From contig CAMTXH010000022.1 of the NCBI GenBank assembly GCA_947085655.1, forward strand, positions 2,556-66,555: a DNA stretch of 64,000 nucleotides, written 5' to 3'. Each line of letters starts with the position of its first letter. Position 1 is the first letter of the stretch. The notes beneath the pieces are model-generated. The model made no database searches. It was not told where the DNA came from and was given only the letters and a program-made list of their open reading frames with translations. This document shows, piece by piece, positions 1,613 to 60,001 of this stretch. The position numbers were made by a program, and so were the translations under genes. Source of the stretch: an uncultured Omnitrophica bacterium (lineage in GTDB: Bacteria > Omnitrophota > Gorgyraeia > JACQQV01).

Positions 1613-1895
1613 CGGTTTCCTTTATCCCGCCACCTACAAGGTGGCGGGATATTTTCGGCCTTATGGCCTCAAATAAAAACCCCGATTCTCTTTCGGGGAT
1701 TTGTGAATAGAGTCCACCCTCCTGGGCAGACCCCTTCTTTTCTCTCTTCTTGCACCCCGCACCCTTCGCTTGCCCTGAACCTGAACAAAGCAAATGGTTC
1801 AGGGCTACGCTCAGCTGCGGGGGTCGCGGGCTTGTCCGCCTTTGGCGGGCTTACCGCCGATGGGGAATTCCACCCACCCCCGAAGAGAAATTCTC
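1613..1895 (-). promoter_or_regulatory. FMN riboswitch (RFN element) in the ribBA 5' leader; aptamer ~1738-1895, expression-platform hairpin 1624-1650
   Basis: The minus-strand transcript reads CTCTTCGGGGGTGGGTGGAATTCCCCATCGGCGGTAAGCCCGCCAAAGGCGGACAAGCCCGCGACCCC...GGTTCAGGGCAAGCGAAGGGTGCGGGGTGCAAGAAGAGAG. This matches the conserved RFN core (CTTCGGGGcAGGGTGaAATTCCCgACCGGCGGTA ... AGCCCGCGA ... GGATGGGAGAAGG) with a closing P1 CTCTTC/GAAGAG. A perfect hairpin CCCGCCACC-ttgtag-GGTGGCGGG follows, just before the RBS and ATG. Confidence 0.65.
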
Positions 1896-2022: not shown

Positions 2023-2051
2023 TTGACTTTGCAGAGGGGGTATGGTATACT
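2023..2051 (+). promoter_or_regulatory. Sigma-70-type promoter (TTGACT - 17 nt - TATACT)
   Basis: Near-consensus -35 TTGACT (2023-2028), a 17-nt spacer, and -10 TATACT (2046-2051). It is positioned to drive the riboswitch-pilin transcript. Confidence 0.5.
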
Positions 2052-2068
2052 TTCACTGAAGGCGAAAA

Positions 2069-2160
2069 AGGCACACTCGGGGAAACCCGAGGTCGCAAAG
2101 CCACGGGTCTACAAATACGGTGCGATAACACCGTTTTCACGATCGCCAGGCTACCGACCT
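2069..2160 (+). promoter_or_regulatory. Candidate c-di-GMP-I (GEMM) riboswitch aptamer
   Basis: GGCACACUCGGGGAAACCCGAG-GUCGCAAAGCCACGGGUCU...ACGGUGCGAUAACACCGU...GCCAGGCUACCGA resembles the GEMM consensus (GGCAAAC, P2 hairpin with GAAA tetraloop, GGACGCAAAGCC junction, P3 hairpin, GCGGGGUUACCGA). There is a GNRA-capped P2, and P3 has a receptor-like internal loop. Confidence 0.6.
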
Positions 2161-2175
2161 CAATGGAATTTTCAA

Positions 2176-2212
2176 GCTGTCTCTCGTGTTGGTAGCGTGA
2201 GGCAGCTTTTTT
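2176..2212 (+). terminator. Intrinsic terminator / riboswitch expression platform upstream of the pilin-like gene
   Basis: Hairpin GCTGTCTC(2176-2183)...GAGGCAGC(2199-2206) with one G-U pair, followed by TTTTTT (2207-2212). It sits ~37 nt before the ATG at 2249. Confidence 0.6.
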
Positions 2213-2248
2213 ATTTGCACCCAAAGAAAAGAGATTTAAAAAGAAAAA

Positions 2249-3667
2249 ATGAGAACCCTTTTAAAGAAAAACGGCTGGGGTCTTATCGAGATGCTGACGG
2301 CGGTCGCCCTGATTGCCCTATTGGTTGTGTTGTCTCTTCCGGTTCTCTCCAGGGTGATGGCGAATATGAGAGATCAAAGCGCCATTGCCTCCCTCTGGGC
2401 CATCCTTGAGGCACAGAAAAGCTACCGGGATGCCCAGACCCCGACGACTTATGCGAATACCATAGGAGATCTTGTAAATGACGAGTATCTTTCGGGAAAA
2501 TTTCTCAACGATTCTTCCTATGAGTACCGGCTTTCTGCCACATCGAACACCTTCACAGCAGAGGTGGTTCGGGATGGAATCATCCTTGCCTCAATCAGCC
2601 ACATTGGAAACCTCACGTATGGAGGAGGGGGCGCAGAGGACGGAGGCAGTGGAGGTGGCGACGGCGGGGGAGGGAGGGGAGGGGGGGAGCAAATCTCTTG
2701 TCCCTATCTTTACATCTGGAACGGCTTTGCCTTTGTCAAAGAAAATGACCTGAATCCTGGAGGAGACATCGAGAGAGGGTTGGGAGAATATACCGATTTT
2801 TATCTCCTCATGAAAAAGGTTGTCCCTCAAAGGAACCAATATCTTTTCCAAATCAGGGAAGAAGTGGAGGAGATCAGCTGGATCAACGCGGTCAGACTTG
2901 TTTCCATCGACCACCCCCGCTCGGTCCAGGTGGCTCCAAGCCCTGAAGGTGTGATTTGGACTTATCGGGAAAAAGATCTTCAAAAGCCCCTCTCGGTCTA
3001 CACGGACAAGGGAGAAGATGCGGCGCCTCTTCTCAGCGATGTGGGAAAGCGTTTCTATCATGGCCGGGCCGGGAACTACCTGATAGTGAACTTTGGGGAA
3101 GTCAGGGATCTTGAAAACGGCGTCAGACTCATTATGAGCGCCGATCCCATGATGATACCGGAAAAGAGCATCCATCTCTTCGCCTGGGTGGAGGAAAGAC
3201 GGTGGATTCCTGTCGCCCAAATTCATCCTCATGAGAAATGGGACCGGTGGGCAGTAGACCTGACAGAGATTGCGAGGAAAAGAAAGGGGCAGGCGCTTCT
3301 CTTGAAATTCGCTCTGACAGACGAGCATCGAATCGACTTTGCCATGCTCGACACTTCCCCTCAAGCGGAGGTTTTCGTCCGGGAGGTCCCTCCGCTCACC
3401 ATGCACCATTCGCGGAGAGGAGATGTCTCGGAGGCGTTGAAAAAGACAGACCAGGAAGTCACGGAATTGGTGAAAGAGGACACCCTGACCTTGACATTCA
3501 AGCGGACCCCTCTCCAAGGAGAGGCGAGAGACTTCCTTTTTGTCTCCACAGCCAGTTACAAGCCCCTCCCTCCTTCCCTGGGAGGTCTCCCCCAGAGGGA
3601 AAAGGAATTTCTTCTCTTTGATGCCGTGCGACGGTTCTTTTCACAAAAGGGAGAACAGCCCCTTTAA
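2249..3667 (+). CDS. Type IV pilin-like / pseudopilin-like protein with a Gly-rich linker and a large (~300 aa) C-terminal domain of unknown function
   Basis: N-terminus MRTLLKKNG|WGLIEMLTAVALIALLVV looks like a class III (prepilin) signal: Gly then cleavage, Glu at +5, hydrophobic helix. A Gly/Asp low-complexity linker (GGGGAEDGGSGGGDGGGGRGGGE) is followed by a long C-terminal domain with no motif I recognise. Confidence 0.7.
   Translation: MRTLLKKNGWGLIEMLTAVALIALLVVLSLPVLSRVMANMRDQSAIASLWAILEAQKSYRDAQTPTTYANTIGDLVNDEYLSGKFLNDSSYEYRLSATSNTFTAEVVRDGIILASISHIGNLTYGGGGAEDGGSGGGDGGGGRGGGEQISCPYLYIWNGFAFVKENDLNPGGDIERGLGEYTDFYLLMKKVVPQRNQYLFQIREEVEEISWINAVRLVSIDHPRSVQVAPSPEGVIWTYREKDLQKPLSVYTDKGEDAAPLLSDVGKRFYHGRAGNYLIVNFGEVRDLENGVRLIMSADPMMIPEKSIHLFAWVEERRWIPVAQIHPHEKWDRWAVDLTEIARKRKGQALLLKFALTDEHRIDFAMLDTSPQAEVFVREVPPLTMHHSRRGDVSEALKKTDQEVTELVKEDTLTLTFKRTPLQGEARDFLFVSTASYKPLPPSLGGLPQREKEFLLFDAVRRFFSQKGEQPL
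2336..2461. repeat. 126-bp block identical at nucleotide level to 3770-3895 (copy 1, inside pilin-like gene 1)
   Basis: Direct comparison of the two stretches shows a perfect 126/126 match. Flanking sequence diverges on both sides. Confidence 0.9.
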
Positions 3668-3679
3668 GGCGCGTGAAAC

Positions 3680-4153
3680 ATGAAAGCGATCCTGAAACAA
3701 AATAAGGGAAAAAGTCTCGTCGAACTCTCAACGACGGTTGCCGTCATCGCCCTTTTGGTTGTTTTTTCCCTTCCGGTTCTCTCCAGGGTGATGGCGAATA
3801 TGAGAGATCAAAGCGCCATTGCCTCCCTCTGGGCCATCCTTGAGGCACAGAAAAGCTACCGGGATGCCCAGACCCCGACGACTTATGCGAATACCCTGGA
3901 AGACCTGATCGCCCAGGGATATCTGGACCGTCTCCCGAGTGACTATCGATATGTTCTCACCGCAACGGCCGATGCCTTCACTATCGAACTCTTAAGGGCA
4001 GGAGATACCCTGGCCACCATTGACCATAACGGGAATTTCTTCACGGGTGATGGGGGTGATGGGGGTGATGGGGGCGGTGGGGGTGATGGGGGTGATGGGG
4101 GCGGTGGGGAGATAAGCCTTGGGCATGAGCCTCCTATACAACCAAATCCATGA
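3680..4153 (+). CDS. Type IV pilin-like protein, short paralog of the upstream gene, ending in a GDG-repeat tail
   Basis: N-terminus MKAILKQNKG|KSLVELSTTVAVIALLVV has the prepilin-like Gly and Glu+5. Residues LPVLSRVMANMRDQSAIASLWAILEAQKSYRDAQTPTTYANT are identical to the upstream paralog. The C-terminus is GDGGDGGDGGGGGDGGDGGGGE. Confidence 0.7.
   Translation: MKAILKQNKGKSLVELSTTVAVIALLVVFSLPVLSRVMANMRDQSAIASLWAILEAQKSYRDAQTPTTYANTLEDLIAQGYLDRLPSDYRYVLTATADAFTIELLRAGDTLATIDHNGNFFTGDGGDGGDGGGGGDGGDGGGGEISLGHEPPIQPNP
3770..3895. repeat. 126-bp block identical to 2336-2461 (copy 2, inside pilin-like gene 2)
   Basis: Same as above. Confidence 0.9.
4046..4108. repeat. In-frame 9-bp tandem repeat (GGTGATGGG / GGCGGTGGG), 7 units, encoding Gly-Asp-Gly repeats
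   Basis: ggtgatggg x3, ggcggtggg, ggtgatggg x2, ggcggtggg. This is a slippage-prone simple sequence inside the CDS. Confidence 0.85.
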
Positions 4154-4192: not shown

Positions 4193-4221
4193 TTGAAAGT
4201 CCTTCCAAATTGTGCTATCCT
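4193..4221 (+). promoter_or_regulatory. Putative sigma-70 promoter (TTGAAA - 17 nt - TATCCT) for the GGDEF gene
   Basis: Sequence match only. The ATG at 4237 would give a very short leader. Confidence 0.4.
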
Positions 4222-4236
4222 CATCCCTGATCTTTC

Positions 4237-5967
4237 ATGCTCACTCTTTTCAAGCGTCCCAGCGTAAGATCCGTTTCCCTGATTGCCCTGGGAATCCTTC
4301 TGGTTTACGTCTTCTCCATCCGTCCGCTCACTCCTTTTGAAGCCCTCCAGTTCAGGATGCACGATTTCTTCTTTGTGAGCGCCCTAAAGGCGAAGCGTCC
4401 CCCTCCGGAACTGGATCAGATTGTTCTCGTGGCCCTGGATGACGAATCCTACACCAAGGTGAACGAACGCTGGCCCTGGGATCGCGCCGTCTACGCAGAA
4501 CTGGTCGAAAAACTTTCCCGTCAGAATCCGCGGTTGATCCTTTTGGATGTCGCTTTTGGGGGAGAACAGAACCCGGAAAGTGACACCCGCCTTGCCGCCG
4601 CCCTGGAAAAGGCGGGAAACGTCTTCATCGCTTATTATCTGGGGGATAATGGCAGACCGGTCTATCCTTTGGGGCGTTTTCGAAAAGCAAGTCTCGGCTC
4701 CGGATATGTCAACAAGCCTCTCGATGCCGATTTCAGTATCCGCCAGGCGCAACTCCTCCGCTGGACGGTTGACGGGGAGCTTCTCGACATGGCGCTGGAA
4801 CTAAAGGCCGCCTCCCACCTTTTTAGCGCCACGCCGGTCCCTTCCCGGGAGAAACAGATCATCCAGTTTCAAAAGAAGGAGGGGTCTCCTCCTCCACCTC
4901 TTCGCGGAACGGCTGTTCCGATTCCGGTCAGGAGGGATGGGACGGTCTTTCTGAATTACCAGGCCTCCCGTGAGGACTTTACGACCGTTCCGGCCTGGAA
5001 GGTCCTTGCGGAGGAAGTCCCCGAAGGGACTTTCAAAGACAAAATCGCCCTTTTTGGAATCACCAACCGGCTGATGCATGATATTCACCATTCCCCCCTC
5101 GGTTCCCTTCCGGGGGTCGTGATCTTTGCCAATCTCCTCCTCATGATTTTAAGCGGCGCTTATGTTTTTGAAGCGCCGCTTTGGGTCGACCTTTTCGTCC
5201 TCTCTTTTTTAGGGATGGCGACCGCCTACGCTACCTATCGGCTCACCCCCTGGCGGGGGTTCCTCTTTTTCTTCTACGCCGTCCTCTTCCTCCTCGGTGT
5301 CACCTTTTTCCTTTACCTCAAAAACATCCACTGGGATTTCGCCGGCACCCTCTTTGCAATGGTCTTCTGTTATCTGGGGATCACGTTTTACAAGTACTTT
5401 TGCGTTGTCCTTGAAAATGCGGCGCTCAAGGAGGAGGCCATCACGGACGGCCTCACGCAACTTTACACCTACCGCTATTTTGAATTGCGGCTCCGGAATG
5501 AATTCGAGCGGGCCAGCCGGTACCATGTCCCTCTTTCCCTTGTGTTTGTGGATGTGGACCACTTCAAAAGAATTAATGACACCTACGGACATGAGGAGGG
5601 AAACATCGTCCTCAGGGCAATCGCGGAGCTCCTCAGGAAACATTCCCGGCGGGTGGATCTGGTTGCCCGCTATGGGGGGGAGGAATTTTGCGTGATCCTA
5701 CCGCAGACAGAGCTGGAAGGGGCCGAGCACTATGCAGAGTTTCTCCGGAAAGCGGTTGAGGAAAGCCCCATTTCTCTCCGGGGGGGAGAAACGATCCGTG
5801 TCACCATCAGCTTGGGTGTTTCTTCCTATCCCCGTTTTCCCGTCACCTCAAGCGAGGAATTGGTCAAATTGACCGATCTGGGAGTCTACCAAGCCAAACA
5901 AACAGGCCGGAACCAGGTCTGCGTGGCGGGAAGCTCCTTCCTGAAAACCAAGGCGGAAAAACCTTAG
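4237..5967 (+). CDS. CHASE2 sensor domain-containing diguanylate cyclase (GGDEF)
   Basis: N-terminal signal/TM, then a CHASE2-like periplasmic region (VLVALDDESYTKVNERWPWDRAVYAELVEKL...LLDVAF). Several TM helices follow, then a C-terminal GGDEF domain with an intact RYGGEEF motif. Confidence 0.85.
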   Translation: MLTLFKRPSVRSVSLIALGILLVYVFSIRPLTPFEALQFRMHDFFFVSALKAKRPPPELDQIVLVALDDESYTKVNERWPWDRAVYAELVEKLSRQNPRLILLDVAFGGEQNPESDTRLAAALEKAGNVFIAYYLGDNGRPVYPLGRFRKASLGSGYVNKPLDADFSIRQAQLLRWTVDGELLDMALELKAASHLFSATPVPSREKQIIQFQKKEGSPPPPLRGTAVPIPVRRDGTVFLNYQASREDFTTVPAWKVLAEEVPEGTFKDKIALFGITNRLMHDIHHSPLGSLPGVVIFANLLLMILSGAYVFEAPLWVDLFVLSFLGMATAYATYRLTPWRGFLFFFYAVLFLLGVTFFLYLKNIHWDFAGTLFAMVFCYLGITFYKYFCVVLENAALKEEAITDGLTQLYTYRYFELRLRNEFERASRYHVPLSLVFVDVDHFKRINDTYGHEEGNIVLRAIAELLRKHSRRVDLVARYGGEEFCVILPQTELEGAEHYAEFLRKAVEESPISLRGGETIRVTISLGVSSYPRFPVTSSEELVKLTDLGVYQAKQTGRNQVCVAGSSFLKTKAEKP

Positions 5968-17204: not shown

Positions 17205-19094
17205 CTACGTCCCTTTTTCCGCCTTCTCCCCTTCGGGATAATACTTCCGGTAGCGGTAGTAATACGAAGAGCTCGGTTCCACTTCTATCGCCCGAATGTC
17301 GTTAAAGACCACCCCCAGAAGTTTTGCCTGGGCCGTGTCCAGCTGGGTCTTGGCCCGCTTGAGGGCATTCCGGGCCGTCCGTCCGGATTGGTATACGAGG
17401 ACAATTCCGTCCAGCTTTGGGGCAAGGATCAGGGTGTCGGTGACCGGAAGAACCGGGGGGCAATCGAAAATCAAAAAGTCAAATTGCGTTCTCAACGTCC
17501 GGATCAGTTCCTCCATCTCATGAGAAGCAAGAAGTTCGGGCGGGTTCGGAGGAAGATGTCCGGAGGTCATGAAATTGAGATAGCCGAGATGGGGGCTTTT
17601 CAAAGCCTCCTGCCATTTGACGTCGGCGACCAGAAGGTCTGATACGTTTTTGAGCGCCTGCTCATAAGAGACCGTTTTGGTCAGCACTTCAAAGAGTCCC
17701 GGTGTCCGTTCAAGGCCGAAGATTTCGTGAATCATGGGACGACGGAAGTCCACGTCGATCAGGAGGGTCTTTTTCCCCATTTGGGCGGAGGCGACCGCCA
17801 GATTCGCGCAGGTCAATGTCTTTCCCTCCCGGGGACCCGTGCTGGAGAGGGCAATGGCGAGCTGCTGCTTCTGGGGAAGGACCGAATAGATGGAAGTCCG
17901 GAGGGTATGGTACGATTCCGCCTCCGGAGAGCGGGGATCAAACTGGGTAACGAGTCGATACCGGGTCTCAGTCAATTTTTTTTCCTCACCCCCGATTCTC
18001 GGAAAAAGGGAAAACCGTTTTTTCTCCGCGGTATCGACCATATGGGGGATCATTCCCAACACCCCCACCCCCAGAAATGATTCGATATCTTCCACCACAC
18101 CGATGGAGGTATCCAGCGCCTCCTTAAAAAACGCGGCGATAAATCCGAGGAGAAGTCCCGAGCAGATTGCCAATACCATGCTCACCTTCTGATCTGTCTG
18201 TAGAGAAATGGAAGGAGGGGAGGCGTGTTCAAGGATGCGGACATTTCCTACATTTCCCGACTCCTCAATCCGCGACTCATTATACTTCTGCTTGAGCTGT
18301 GACACCAGATCTTGATTATCCCGGCGTTCCTTGGTAAGCCGAGAGGAAGTCAGCTCTTCCTCCGGGAGTTGTTTGAGTTTTTCCCCTGCAGAGGCAATTT
18401 GCTGGTTCAACCGCTCCACCTCCGGATGCTTTTCCGTGGCCCGGGCCAAGAGGTCTTCCCGTTTAAGCTCAAGGGCCATGACCGAACTCCTGATGTCTGC
18501 CACCTGATCCGCAAGGGGAGATCCTTCTTTAAACTGCCTCAACGCCTCTTCCGACTTGAACAAACGTTCTTCGGCTTTTTTCAATTCCTCCTCGATAAAG
18601 ACACGGACCGCTCTTTTTTCGCGGCCGGTCTCTTCAAGGTTGTACGCCACGTAGGCCTTGGCAACCGCATCCGCAATCGGTTTAGTCTCCTCGGCATTCG
18701 GACCGGTAACCGTGATTCGAATCACATTGGTATCCCCAATCTGAAGTGCGCTGACTTTTCTCTGAATTCCATGAACAATGTCTTCCCGTTCGAGGAGATC
18801 CGTGACCCCTCCCAGCCGGCCCAGCGCCTCAGCCGCCTTTTCCGCCACCGGGAAACTTTTGATGATTTCCAGCTGCGACTGGATCAGGTTCCCCAAAGCA
18901 TACGCATACCCCTCCCCGATGACCGGGACTCGCTGGATGAATTTGACTTTGAGATTGGATTGGTAGACCGGCTTCTGAGAAGAAATGAAATAATAGGAAA
19001 TCCCGATCACCATGCAGAAGATGATGAAGATGGTCACCTTCCGCTTCCGGAAAATCCGGTAATAATCCCGCAGATTCAGTTCATATTCTGCCAT
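17205..19094 (-). CDS. Polysaccharide chain-length determinant / bacterial tyrosine autokinase (Wzc/ExoP-like BY-kinase)
   Basis: N-terminal Wzz-like domain with TM helices and coiled coil. C-terminal P-loop domain (GPREGKTLTCANLAVASAQMGKKTLLIDVDFRRP) and a Tyr-rich tail SSSYYYRYRKYY. Confidence 0.85.
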   Translation of the reverse strand: MAEYELNLRDYYRIFRKRKVTIFIIFCMVIGISYYFISSQKPVYQSNLKVKFIQRVPVIGEGYAYALGNLIQSQLEIIKSFPVAEKAAEALGRLGGVTDLLEREDIVHGIQRKVSALQIGDTNVIRITVTGPNAEETKPIADAVAKAYVAYNLEETGREKRAVRVFIEEELKKAEERLFKSEEALRQFKEGSPLADQVADIRSSVMALELKREDLLARATEKHPEVERLNQQIASAGEKLKQLPEEELTSSRLTKERRDNQDLVSQLKQKYNESRIEESGNVGNVRILEHASPPSISLQTDQKVSMVLAICSGLLLGFIAAFFKEALDTSIGVVEDIESFLGVGVLGMIPHMVDTAEKKRFSLFPRIGGEEKKLTETRYRLVTQFDPRSPEAESYHTLRTSIYSVLPQKQQLAIALSSTGPREGKTLTCANLAVASAQMGKKTLLIDVDFRRPMIHEIFGLERTPGLFEVLTKTVSYEQALKNVSDLLVADVKWQEALKSPHLGYLNFMTSGHLPPNPPELLASHEMEELIRTLRTQFDFLIFDCPPVLPVTDTLILAPKLDGIVLVYQSGRTARNALKRAKTQLDTAQAKLLGVVFNDIRAIEVEPSSSYYYRYRKYYPEGEKAEKGT

Positions 19095-19096
19095 TT

Positions 19097-20146
19097 TTAC
19101 TCCTGAGTGATTTCGGAAACGTCAACGGGTCTTTTGATGTGTACGAGCGGTTCCTGCGCCAGGTCAATCCGCTTGATCTCCGAGAGGCGGTTTCCGCTTC
19201 CGTCCAGATAGATGTCGAGGACTGGAAGAAGCGGAAAGTTTTTGTTGACCTTCACCACCCGGCCGATTTCCTTGGTGTTCAACTGCACATAACTTCCGAT
19301 CGGGTAAATGGAGAGCTCCCGAACCAAAGCCTTCAGAATCTGGATGAGACTCGCCTTGAATTGGCTCCCCATGGAATAGGCAATTAACTTCATCGCCTCA
19401 TCCGGCGCGTGCCGTTTCCGGTAAGGGGGGGAGTGGGTTAAGGCTTCATAAACATCCGCGATGGCGATGATCCCCCCGAATTCGGTCACCTGGTCCTCCC
19501 GGAGCCCCCTGGGATAGCTGGTACCGTCCAGCCGCTCATGCTGGTGGGAAATCGCATCCAGAATCACCCGGTCCAAATCTTTCATATTCTCGAGAACCTG
19601 AACGGTATAGATGGGGTGTTTTTTGACAATCTCCATCTCTTCATCGGAGAGAGAAGCCGCCTTTTCCGTGAGCGCTTTCGGAACCTTCGCCATTCCAAGG
19701 TCATGCACCAACGCGGCTAGACCCAGTTGTCGGAGTTCCCCGTCGTTCAAACGGAGGCCCATCCCGACCTTGATGGAAAAAATCGATACATTGACACTGT
19801 GGGGATAAAGATAGTCTTCTTCCGACCAAGAAAATGTCAAGGTCAGAAGGGATTCTCCCCCCATTTTCAAAACGGAGATGATCCGATCGATCACTTCCTG
19901 ACCTCCGGCAAGGTCCGGGATAGGTCCTTTCTCCGCTTCTTCGAATTTTTTCCGGATCCAGTTCAGCGCCTCCTGATAGAGGGCCACCTCGCCTGTCTGC
20001 ATTGGAGAGGGCAGGATCTTCTGAGAAATGGCAGGACTCGGAGGAAGCGAAAAAGGGGGAGCGATCTCGGGGGTCGCTTGCTCCTCTTTCGGCGGTGGGG
20101 CCTTTGGATTGCCGTCGGGTCCCAAGACATCCGAAAGCCGGACCAT
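19097..20146 (-). CDS. HD-GYP domain protein (putative c-di-GMP phosphodiesterase)
   Basis: ALVHDLGMAKVP (HD) ... HHERLDGTSYPRGL (GYP). Its start overlaps the upstream ATPase stop (TGATG). Confidence 0.85.
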   Translation of the reverse strand: MVRLSDVLGPDGNPKAPPPKEEQATPEIAPPFSLPPSPAISQKILPSPMQTGEVALYQEALNWIRKKFEEAEKGPIPDLAGGQEVIDRIISVLKMGGESLLTLTFSWSEEDYLYPHSVNVSIFSIKVGMGLRLNDGELRQLGLAALVHDLGMAKVPKALTEKAASLSDEEMEIVKKHPIYTVQVLENMKDLDRVILDAISHQHERLDGTSYPRGLREDQVTEFGGIIAIADVYEALTHSPPYRKRHAPDEAMKLIAYSMGSQFKASLIQILKALVRELSIYPIGSYVQLNTKEIGRVVKVNKNFPLLPVLDIYLDGSGNRLSEIKRIDLAQEPLVHIKRPVDVSEITQE

Positions 20147-58110: not shown

Positions 58111-58504
58111 CAGTAGAGTAGACCTGTAAGCCGAGTTCTGTCCTCCGCCACGATTCATGGCGGAGAGGCGGTCATCTCTCTTGTCCCGGTGTTGCCACCG
58201 GGCTCCAGCGACCATACCCACCTCGCCTCCCGTGTCTGGGATTCGGACGGGCCGCCCTTCATTCCTTAGGAACAGGCAGAGGTCTATTGGGTCTTGCTCC
58301 GCGTAGAGATTGCCCGTTTCACCTCCCCGCCAGAGAACTGCGGCGGGGAACTCGTCTCTGTTGCTCTAATCCTTCCGTCCGCCAAGATTCGCGGCGGACG
58401 GAGGCGGGTGTTACCCGCTACGCTGCCCTCCGGAGCTCGGACTTTCCTCCCGCTCCGCCACACATCGTGGCGGATGGCGGGCGACCGCCAGGTCTACTCT
58501 ACAG
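58111..58504 (-). ncRNA. rnpB: RNase P RNA (bacterial type A)
   Basis: The minus strand contains AGGAAAGTCCGAGCTCCGGAGGGCAGCGTAGCGGGTAACACCCGCC (P4/GGAAAGUCCGGGCUCC-type core) and ACAGAACTCGGCTTACAGGTCTACTCTACTG at the 3' end. The P1 helix is CAGTAGAGTAGACCTG / CAGGTCTACTCTACAG. Confidence 0.8.
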
Positions 58505-59929: not shown

Positions 59930-60001
59930 TGGGCCCACCAGGATTCGAACCTGGGACCAAGAGATTATGAGTCTCCTGCTCTACCGCTGAGCTATGGGCC
60001 C
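59930..60001 (-). tRNA. tRNA-Met (anticodon CAT; elongator Met or tRNA-Ile2 lysidine-type), no encoded CCA
   Basis: GGGCCCATAGCTCAGCGGTAGAGCAGGAGACTCATAATCTCTTGGTCCCAGGTTCGAATCCTGGTGGGCCCA has a 7-bp acceptor stem, an anticodon loop CTCATAA and a T-loop TTCGAAT. Confidence 0.8.

Follow-up and report, generated by a model that had tools for sequence, protein, structure and literature searches.

A tract of perfect identity in two tandem pilin-like genes of an uncultured Omnitrophota bacterium, most probably left by gene conversion

Introduction

In a 64-kb stretch of metagenome-assembled DNA from an uncultured Omnitrophota bacterium (hereafter, the window), two adjacent genes for pilin-like proteins share a block of 126 nucleotides (nt) without a single difference. 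How does a perfectly identical segment come to lie inside two paralogs that have diverged on both of its sides? An earlier note on this DNA had offered two answers, recent gene conversion or an active recombination cassette reminiscent of pilin antigenic or phase variation. Gene conversion is an ordinary process in duplicated genes and opens no new question here; the concerted evolution of tufA and tufB is a further example of conversion between paralogs. A perfectly identical stretch in pilin paralogs does not, taken alone, speak for antigenic variation. The reading that we consider quite probable is that of a small operon with two tandem paralogous pilin-like genes, in which the identity results from a one-off, RecA-type non-allelic gene conversion. 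The features concerned are:

2249–3667, plus strand: gene 1, modular pilin-like protein of 472 amino acids (aa); open reading frame with leader and helix, pilin head, Gly linker (2621–2686) and beta domain (2687–3664)
2336–2461, plus strand: putative conversion tract, gene 1 copy, codons 30–71; 126/126 match, permutation P<5e-6
3680–4153, plus strand: gene 2, short pilin-like protein of 157 aa; open reading frame with pilin module, Gly/Asp linker and short tail
3770–3895, plus strand: putative conversion tract, gene 2 copy, codons 31–72; 126/126 match

Results and Discussion

An identical block between saturated flanks

The identity of 2336–2461 with 3770–3895, reported in the earlier note, was confirmed as an exact match of 126 out of 126 nt, with zero bases of extension possible at either end. 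Both copies lie in frame within the two co-oriented open reading frames, gene 2 beginning 12 nt past the stop codon of gene 1, and a repeat search returned a longer direct repeat of 193 nt (89% identity, spacing 1434 nt) that has the block as its core. The two genes are complete, each with a start codon and a prepilin-like leader.

The two pilin modules were aligned by codons (119 codons, 357 nt), and all of the 107 differences in the alignment fell outside the block. Gene 1 and gene 2 share 63% of nucleotides, 38% of third codon positions and 59% of amino acids in the 5′ flank, and 48%, 27% and 44%, respectively, in the 3′ flank; the block is at 100% on each of these measures. Synonymous divergence estimated by the Nei-Gojobori method (NG86 dS) was incalculable in both flanks, which are saturated. 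When the variable sites were permuted 200,000 times, an equally long run never arose, either with all sites or with third positions only (P<5e-6).

Such an identity might also be imposed on the nucleotide sequence itself, by an RNA structure, a small RNA (sRNA) target or a regulatory site within the coding sequence. The block is indeed the most conserved segment of the protein family, with the motif QKSYRDAQTPTTYAN invariant across all relatives, and a small hairpin-like element is predicted inside it on the minus strand. However, between species the same 42 codons share 67–79% of nucleotides and 33–62% of third positions, and among the 28–33 codons of the block that specify the same amino acid, 10–20 are identical as codons. 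Orthologs thus differ at 21–33% of block nucleotides and 38–67% of third positions with the protein motif kept, which argues that the constraint acts on the protein and not on DNA or RNA, and we regard a nucleotide-level constraint as extremely improbable. Since the flanks are saturated and the relatives vary at synonymous sites, the block is better read as a recent conversion tract, as the earlier note had proposed. Moreover, paralog pairs found in two related metagenomic loci (L008 and L001 in our numbering) are 71–75% identical and have no exact tract, so that the identity reflects an event and is not a general property of such pairs. As judged from these alignments, the conversion tract is recent and short, 126 nt at most.

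The block lies in a presumed assembly segment of two pilin-like proteins

The leaders read MRTLLKKNG/WGLIEMLTAVALIALLVV in gene 1 and MKAILKQNKG/KSLVELSTTVAVIALLVV in gene 2, the slash marking the predicted cleavage. Both are basic, end in Gly, and are followed by a hydrophobic stretch with Glu at position +5; the class III signal feature, a hydrophilic leader ending in Gly, about 20 hydrophobic residues and Glu +5, is therefore present in both genes. The corresponding leaders of relatives read G/FTLID, G/WTLPE and G/FTLAE, and a distant metagenomic relative (L008) has a pair of ordinary GFTLVEIM pilins that share an AQTPTTYA motif. NCBIfam gave only sub-threshold matches, to the PilA, ComGC, ComGE and XpsH models at 14–23 bits and to GspG. 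The gene 1 protein has an identical copy in two NCBI assemblies and an ortholog (P0002) at 56% identity.

An AlphaFold2 (AF2) model of the gene 2 protein consists of a helix of 52 residues (12–63), a short helix, a four-stranded sheet (90–122) and a disordered Gly/Asp tail, with a mean predicted local distance difference test (pLDDT) of 72.8 overall and 80–91 in the core, from an 8-row alignment. Foldseek placed a type IV pilin first among PDB structures, PilA4 of Thermus thermophilus (6xxd_A, probability 1.00, TM 0.56/0.69), and the gene 2 protein is accordingly modelled with a type IV pilin fold. The block, residues 30–71 of gene 1, covers the C-terminal half of the long helix and the invariant motif QKSYRDAQTPTTYAN; on the gene 2 model it spans the C-terminal half of helix alpha-1 and runs into the beginning of the alpha-beta loop. 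It is not, then, the N-terminal constant module that the earlier note had seen in it. The description of gene 2 as a truncated, linker-only variant was broadly right, except that a pilin module precedes its Gly/Asp linker and short tail: gene 2 is the same pilin carrier as gene 1, without cargo.

Probable native paralogs from a lineage-specific duplication

Relatives have just one pilin-module gene at the orthologous site, and it is joined to a beta domain (L001, 62% identity to the gene 1 domain), to a Hint/intein-like domain (L002, L005, L007) or to nothing (L004). A tandem pair at this site was found only in the genome of the window, across the several data sets that represent it. In all three segments, gene 1 and gene 2 are closest to each other, with 59, 100 and 44% aa identity before, in and after the block versus at most 41, 76 and 35% to other members. 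Their heads are homologous and share a 3-residue deletion, and Gly-rich linkers follow both. Because the two genes are closest to each other throughout and have this deletion in common, a tandem duplication of the pilin module in this lineage is indicated. The statement that everything before and after the block had diverged needs correction, since the sequence after it is not completely different, given the heads with 44% aa identity, the shared deletion and the linkers. Likewise, of the supposedly different C-terminal portions, only the domain of about 326 aa in gene 1 is without a gene 2 counterpart, the pilin heads being homologous.

Donors from outside could produce a similar picture: either a very recent duplicate of the pilin module had its flanks replaced from divergent strains, or the block itself came from a third sequence. 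In formal terms this would account for an identical core between divergent flanks, and a related species co-occurs in the sample, since the sequencing run ERR3478686 yields both L001 and a contig of the present locus (L090). Such a mosaic would take two or more independent exchanges, each ending precisely in frame, where internal conversion needs one. In addition, the flanks are closer to each other than to other family members and have the 3-aa deletion in common, which points to native paralogs, and the block differs from all known relatives by 21–33%. We therefore consider an external donor unlikely, and keep conversion between the two genes as the preferred explanation.

RibBA, encoded upstream of the pilin genes, has 69% and 66% identity to proteins of Candidatus Omnitrophota metagenome-assembled genomes (MAGs), the next matches being at 53–59%. 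The pilin module had no match in a scan of GTDB species representatives. Of the Omnitrophota representatives, the closest ones to which RibBA led either lacked the locus or had contigs that stop just before it. Three closest MAG contigs stop 120–270 nt upstream of ribBA (L009 1–268, L010 1–120, L015 1–155); breaks at the pilin locus may be due to repeats or strain variability. Protein searches by word index, run with the whole of gene 1, with the pilin module alone and with the C-terminal domain, gave 2–3 matches each. They are no proof that copies are absent, because the search with the gene 2 module missed gene 1 despite 42 identical residues.

The pilin-Hint fusions of relatives (L002 412–1260, L005 4033–4848, L007 5965–6816) are joined by a Gly/Pro linker. 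Their Hint domain matches PT-HINT, has intein N- and C-terminal motifs, begins with Cys and ends in HN, and its sequence suggests an autoprocessing pilin. The same pilin carrier has thus exchanged its cargo modules at one locus, a Hint/intein-like domain included.

The arrangement in independent data sets

The window is a metagenome-assembled sequence, and a chimeric or collapsed assembly might in principle have made the repeat. However, the two separate NCBI assemblies agree: the second one, GCA_964374045.1 (L003), is 99.97% identical over 14 kb and has the same arrangement. In two other sequencing runs, ERR4904391 and ERR3478686, Logan contigs of this locus (L089 and L090) begin at position 3866 and so include the last 30 nt of the block. 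With k=31, which we assume for the Logan assembler, a contig start 30 nt into the block is the expected stop at a true repeat. Counting both assemblies and both runs, the repeat is present in four independent data sets. Moreover, assemblers do not make in-frame identical tracts inside two open reading frames. An artefact is in our opinion hardly credible.

No recombinant junctions were seen in the two assemblies and the two Logan contigs (contigs, not reads). The comparison for alternative junctions that the earlier note had suggested thus yielded the same arrangement in the second assembly, and two Logan contigs that are compatible with it but stop short of spanning the repeat. The three proteins predicted from crossing-over in the block were looked up exactly in a collection of 15 billion proteins and none was present, which is a weak negative.

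One-off conversion or programmed variation

The other proposal of the earlier note was programmed pilin variation. The block would then be the recombination site of a cassette or switch, with recurrent conversion, functioning either in the manner of pilE/pilS or as a deletion/duplication toggle of the adhesin module. A perfect direct repeat of 126 nt is long enough for RecA-dependent crossing-over, and crossing-over in the block would give in-frame chimeras. The occurrence of the same pilin module with different C-terminal modules across species would also suit such a system, as would the several related MAG contigs that stop where the locus would be.

Other observations speak against it. Searched on both strands, the 64-kb window has no further occurrence of any 14-mer from the block, and the flanking contig sequence, 2.3 kb to the left (from L003) and 9.5 kb to the right (L091), has no 16-mer from it; window and flanks together make about 76 kb of contig, the range covered by the search for a third copy. 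There are only two copies, both of them complete genes, and the search for silent copies that the earlier note had called for found none in this range. The tract is the conserved part of the protein, and the variable heads stay divergent. No recombinase, invertase or reverse transcriptase was found among the annotated neighbouring genes. The two assemblies have the same arrangement, the two further runs are compatible with it, and the predicted recombinant proteins are absent from the protein collection.

G-quadruplex (G4) motifs form a separate point. Three of the eight canonical G4 motifs of the window lie in the two Gly-linker coding stretches (2666–2687, 4045–4074 and 4079–4109, plus strand), a feature that might stimulate recombination in such a system. 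The G-rich runs are more simply explained as poly-Gly codons. These motifs are on the coding strand, 150–205 nt 3′ of each block copy, and two of them fall in a tandem repeat:

4045–4109, plus strand: 9-nt tandem repeat (GGGTGATGG, 7.2 copies) in the Gly/Asp linker of gene 2; Tandem Repeats Finder, with a match to the G4 regular expression

Of the four single-nucleotide polymorphisms (SNPs) between the window and the other assembly over 14 kb, three lie in this repeat (4066, 4084 and 4086). They turn one type of Gly-Asp-Gly repeat unit into the other (D to G), and both Logan contigs have the other assembly's allele at these three positions.

In Neisseria, pilE is varied from many promoterless, 5′-truncated silent pilS cassettes, the variable regions are replaced, and a G4 with an sRNA is located upstream of pilE. 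The present locus has in common with this system the pilin genes, RecA-type conversion between paralogous pilin sequences and G4-capable DNA nearby. It departs from that system in three ways: two complete genes of the expressed type are present, conversion affected the conserved region, and Gly-linker codons make up the G4 motifs. It is not of the Neisseria type, because silent copies were not found in the 76 kb and the tract is not a variable one. A diversity-generating retroelement was rejected, since the repeats are 100% identical and no reverse transcriptase was annotated nearby, and an invertase or shufflon because neither an invertase nor a recombinase was annotated there.

Programmed variation is on this evidence very unlikely. 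We give the same low credence to a toggle in which recurrent conversion would keep the 126-nt crossover site, deletion would set the cargo-less pilin behind the riboswitch described below, duplication would restore the adhesin, and linker G4 DNA would promote both the toggle and module swapping. The claim of an active cassette serving antigenic or phase variation was accordingly not sustained, the locus having two full genes, no silent copies in about 76 kb and a conserved tract. A constant module with variable C-terminal modules does exist, but on the evolutionary scale (beta domain, Hint domain or none): since related genomes join the same pilin module to different C-terminal modules, the modularity is evolutionary and not programmed.

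How the tract may have arisen

Under the conversion scenario, a lineage-specific tandem duplication of the pilin module would have yielded gene 2, and the copies would have diverged until synonymous sites were saturated. General homologous recombination, with no dedicated machinery, would then have copied one paralog onto the other. It would have nucleated where the paralogs are most alike, in the C-terminal half of helix alpha-1 and QKSYRDAQTPTTYAN. A prepilin peptidase may process both proteins, which could co-assemble into one type-4 filament, and conversion might keep the shared assembly segment identical for co-polymerisation. As a side effect, RecA could now act on the 126-nt direct repeat to delete or duplicate the 1434-nt unit; neither product was seen.

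The nearest parallel in mechanism is the lpl cluster of Staphylococcus aureus, whose tandem paralogs recombine at a central region that is conserved among them (Tsuru and Kobayashi 2008, PMC2568036). There too the paralogs are tandem, co-oriented and surface-related, with variable 5′ and 3′ parts around a conserved stretch usable for recombination. Unlike lpl, the present locus has two genes only, one perfect 126-nt block and no strain series with shuffling, and encodes pilin-like proteins, not lipoproteins.

Several points weigh against this scenario or some part of it. The direction and age of the conversion are not fixed by the data, an external donor, from another strain, is possible for the block or its flanks, and the search for a third copy was limited to about 76 kb of contig. 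Regarding the proteins, the predicted mature pilins start with non-canonical residues (W and K at +1, in place of Phe or Met), and both score below the N-methyl thresholds of Pfam and TIGRFAM (PF07963/TIGR02532); for these two reasons prepilin processing and assembly are only predicted. The gene 2 model is of moderate confidence (pLDDT 72.8, eight sequences) and has one meaningful structural match. Finally, co-assembly and selection for identity are inferred, and a neutral one-off event explains the data equally well.

The C-terminal module of gene 1

The part of gene 1 that has no counterpart in gene 2 is:

2687–3664, plus strand: C-terminal module of gene 1, all-beta, about 300 aa plus a terminal helix (aa 147–472, 326 aa); uncharacterised family

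This domain had no Pfam match, and a profile search of PDB sequences was empty. Exhaustive HMMER searching found 1300 representative homologs at E<=1e-3, and 94 at E<=1e-30. Most are C-terminal in large extracellular multidomain proteins that are not pilins, where the partner domains are HYR, PKD, Peptidase_C25, FG-GAP, Laminin_G_3, TSP_3 and beta-helix; the domain also occurs in other pilin fusions (P0009, P0012, P0015, P0018). The AF2 model (27-row alignment) is all-beta, with a pLDDT of 91 and a predicted template modelling score (pTM) of 0.85. Foldseek comparison with the PDB and BFVD gave weak likeness to beta-sandwich, carbohydrate-binding module (CBM) and jelly-roll folds, at TM 0.33 or less. 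The module, modelled as two beta-sandwiches, probably binds a ligand. Conserved residues of the domain are C5, P6, W11, G13, N20, D37, Y39, H76, W173, W185, D255 and several His/Asp. The family is large and widespread (about 1300 representative clusters) and uncharacterised, with a confident predicted fold but no Pfam model or solved structure.

Gene 1 thus combines a pilin module, a linker and an extra module that is widespread outside pilins and not specific to pilus biology, and on these grounds follows the modular-pilin design. The nearest parallel in protein design is found in the modular type IV pilins, such as PilB (vWA) and PilC (lectin) of Streptococcus sanguinis and CofB of enterotoxigenic Escherichia coli (ETEC); the filament is predicted to present such pilins so that they can bind ligands (Raynaud et al. 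2021, PMC8179133). Gene 1 resembles them in its small N-terminal pilin module, its linker and its bulky module also found outside pilins. It differs from the S. sanguinis and ETEC proteins in that its module has no Pfam/InterPro-type signature or solved relative, and in its non-canonical leader. Unlike these proteins, it belongs to an uncultured Omnitrophota bacterium and has a cargo-less paralog directly downstream. In the filament envisaged above, gene 1 would display its beta module.

A predicted c-di-GMP riboswitch ahead of the pilin genes

The leader of gene 1 and the gene that follows gene 2 bear on how the pair may be regulated, through cyclic di-GMP (c-di-GMP):

2023–2051, plus strand: sigma-70-like promoter, TTGACT-17 nt-TATACT with TG extension; consensus match only, 10/12
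2061–2159, plus strand: riboswitch aptamer of c-di-GMP-I type (GEMM-I clan, Rfam CL00126) in the gene 1 leader; RF03167, 61.8 bits versus a gathering threshold of 59, E=3.6e-12
2174–2214, plus strand: intrinsic terminator (expression platform), hairpin and U tract; terminator scan, RNAfold -19.1 kcal/mol
4237–5967, plus strand: CHASE2-GGDEF diguanylate cyclase; Pfam E=1e-45 and 7.6e-45, GGEEF and RxxD motifs intact

A similar promoter motif is present 5′ of the orthologous gene in L004. Orthologous leaders (L001, L002, L005, L007) matched RF01051 at 77.6, 54.5 and 39 bits (gathering threshold 35) and RF03167 at 60.8 bits. The column diagnostic of the GGC variant, which we take to be the intercalating A47 of Vc2, G in that variant, reads A in the window aptamer (CGCAAAGC); it mismatches the G of RF03167 and equals the RF01051 consensus. 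The c-di-GMP-I-GGC variant (RF03167), although it is the best Rfam match of the aptamer, was therefore rejected, the diagnostic column of the CGC[A/G]AAGC segment being A and not G, and the predicted ligand is c-di-GMP, as for canonical c-di-GMP-I aptamers.

The terminator hairpin begins 15 nt after the aptamer. The 3′ strand of the aptamer is also predicted to pair with the terminator region in a competing duplex (-20.3 kcal/mol); as a candidate antiterminator, this duplex would make an OFF switch. The two energies are similar, and the folding fits either ON or OFF logic. Gene 1 and gene 2 are probably co-transcribed from the sigma-70-like promoter through the riboswitch. Between gene 2 and the CHASE2-GGDEF gene no terminator was predicted, and there is a weak promoter-like site at 4193–4221. 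Should the pilin genes and the cyclase be co-transcribed, a c-di-GMP riboswitch would control a c-di-GMP synthase. Transcription of the pair would in any case respond to c-di-GMP, from the neighbouring cyclase among other sources.

Riboswitch control of a c-di-GMP synthase has been described as rare, and in Clostridioides difficile, the nearest parallel in regulation, the pilin gene pilA1 is preceded by the class II c-di-GMP riboswitch Cdi-2-4, an ON switch (PMC6366702). As in pilA1, a c-di-GMP-sensing leader and a transcription terminator lie here directly 5′ of a pilin gene; unlike the class II riboswitch of C. difficile, the aptamer is of class I, in the GEMM-I clan, and is known from a sequence match.

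The order rib operon, riboswitch, pilin gene, CHASE2-GGDEF, SMC is kept in six related metagenomic loci; the riboswitch was found in four of the six, and a CHASE2-GGDEF neighbour in L001, L002, L004, L005 and L007. A riboswitch, pilin and diguanylate cyclase module is thereby documented as conserved within one clade of uncultured Omnitrophota, and nearly all that is known of this phylum comes from metagenome assemblies.

Candidate assembly machinery and other features of the contig

No pilus-machinery genes were found among the annotated genes between 9 and 50 kb of the window, and no prepilin peptidase gene was seen in the available contig sequence. Immediately beyond the right edge, on the same contig, a complete type II secretion system (T2SS) cluster occupies L091 1–9222 (about 64.3–73.5 kb in window-equivalent positions). 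It encodes GspF, G, H, a small pilin-like protein, a J-like protein, K, L of PilM/N type, M, an AAA_22 protein, C and the secretin D. This cluster adjoins cvpA and dnaG and is a candidate assembly machinery for the pilin-like proteins, whose filament might thus be assembled by a T2SS-type apparatus about 60 kb away.

Two other genes, both on the minus strand, belong to a c-di-GMP and surface-polymer context. An HD_5 (HD-GYP-like) protein, possibly a c-di-GMP phosphodiesterase, is encoded at 19097–20146, and its gene adjoins one for a GNVR/AAA_31 tyrosine-kinase-like polysaccharide co-polymerase at 17205–19094.

The riboflavin operon upstream of the pilin genes is on the minus strand, with a divergent flavin mononucleotide (FMN) riboswitch 5′ of ribBA (1740–1891, minus strand; 3481–3659 in L005, 4051–4245 in L006 and 5346–5497 in L007). 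The FMN aptamers of this clade are full-length but score 47.7–58 bits versus the Rfam gathering threshold of 66.2, so that default annotation would miss them. Toward the right end of the window, two kinds of RNA gene were identified:

58111–58500, minus strand: RNase P RNA class A, 189 bits
59702–59775 and 59930–60001, minus strand: two tRNA genes

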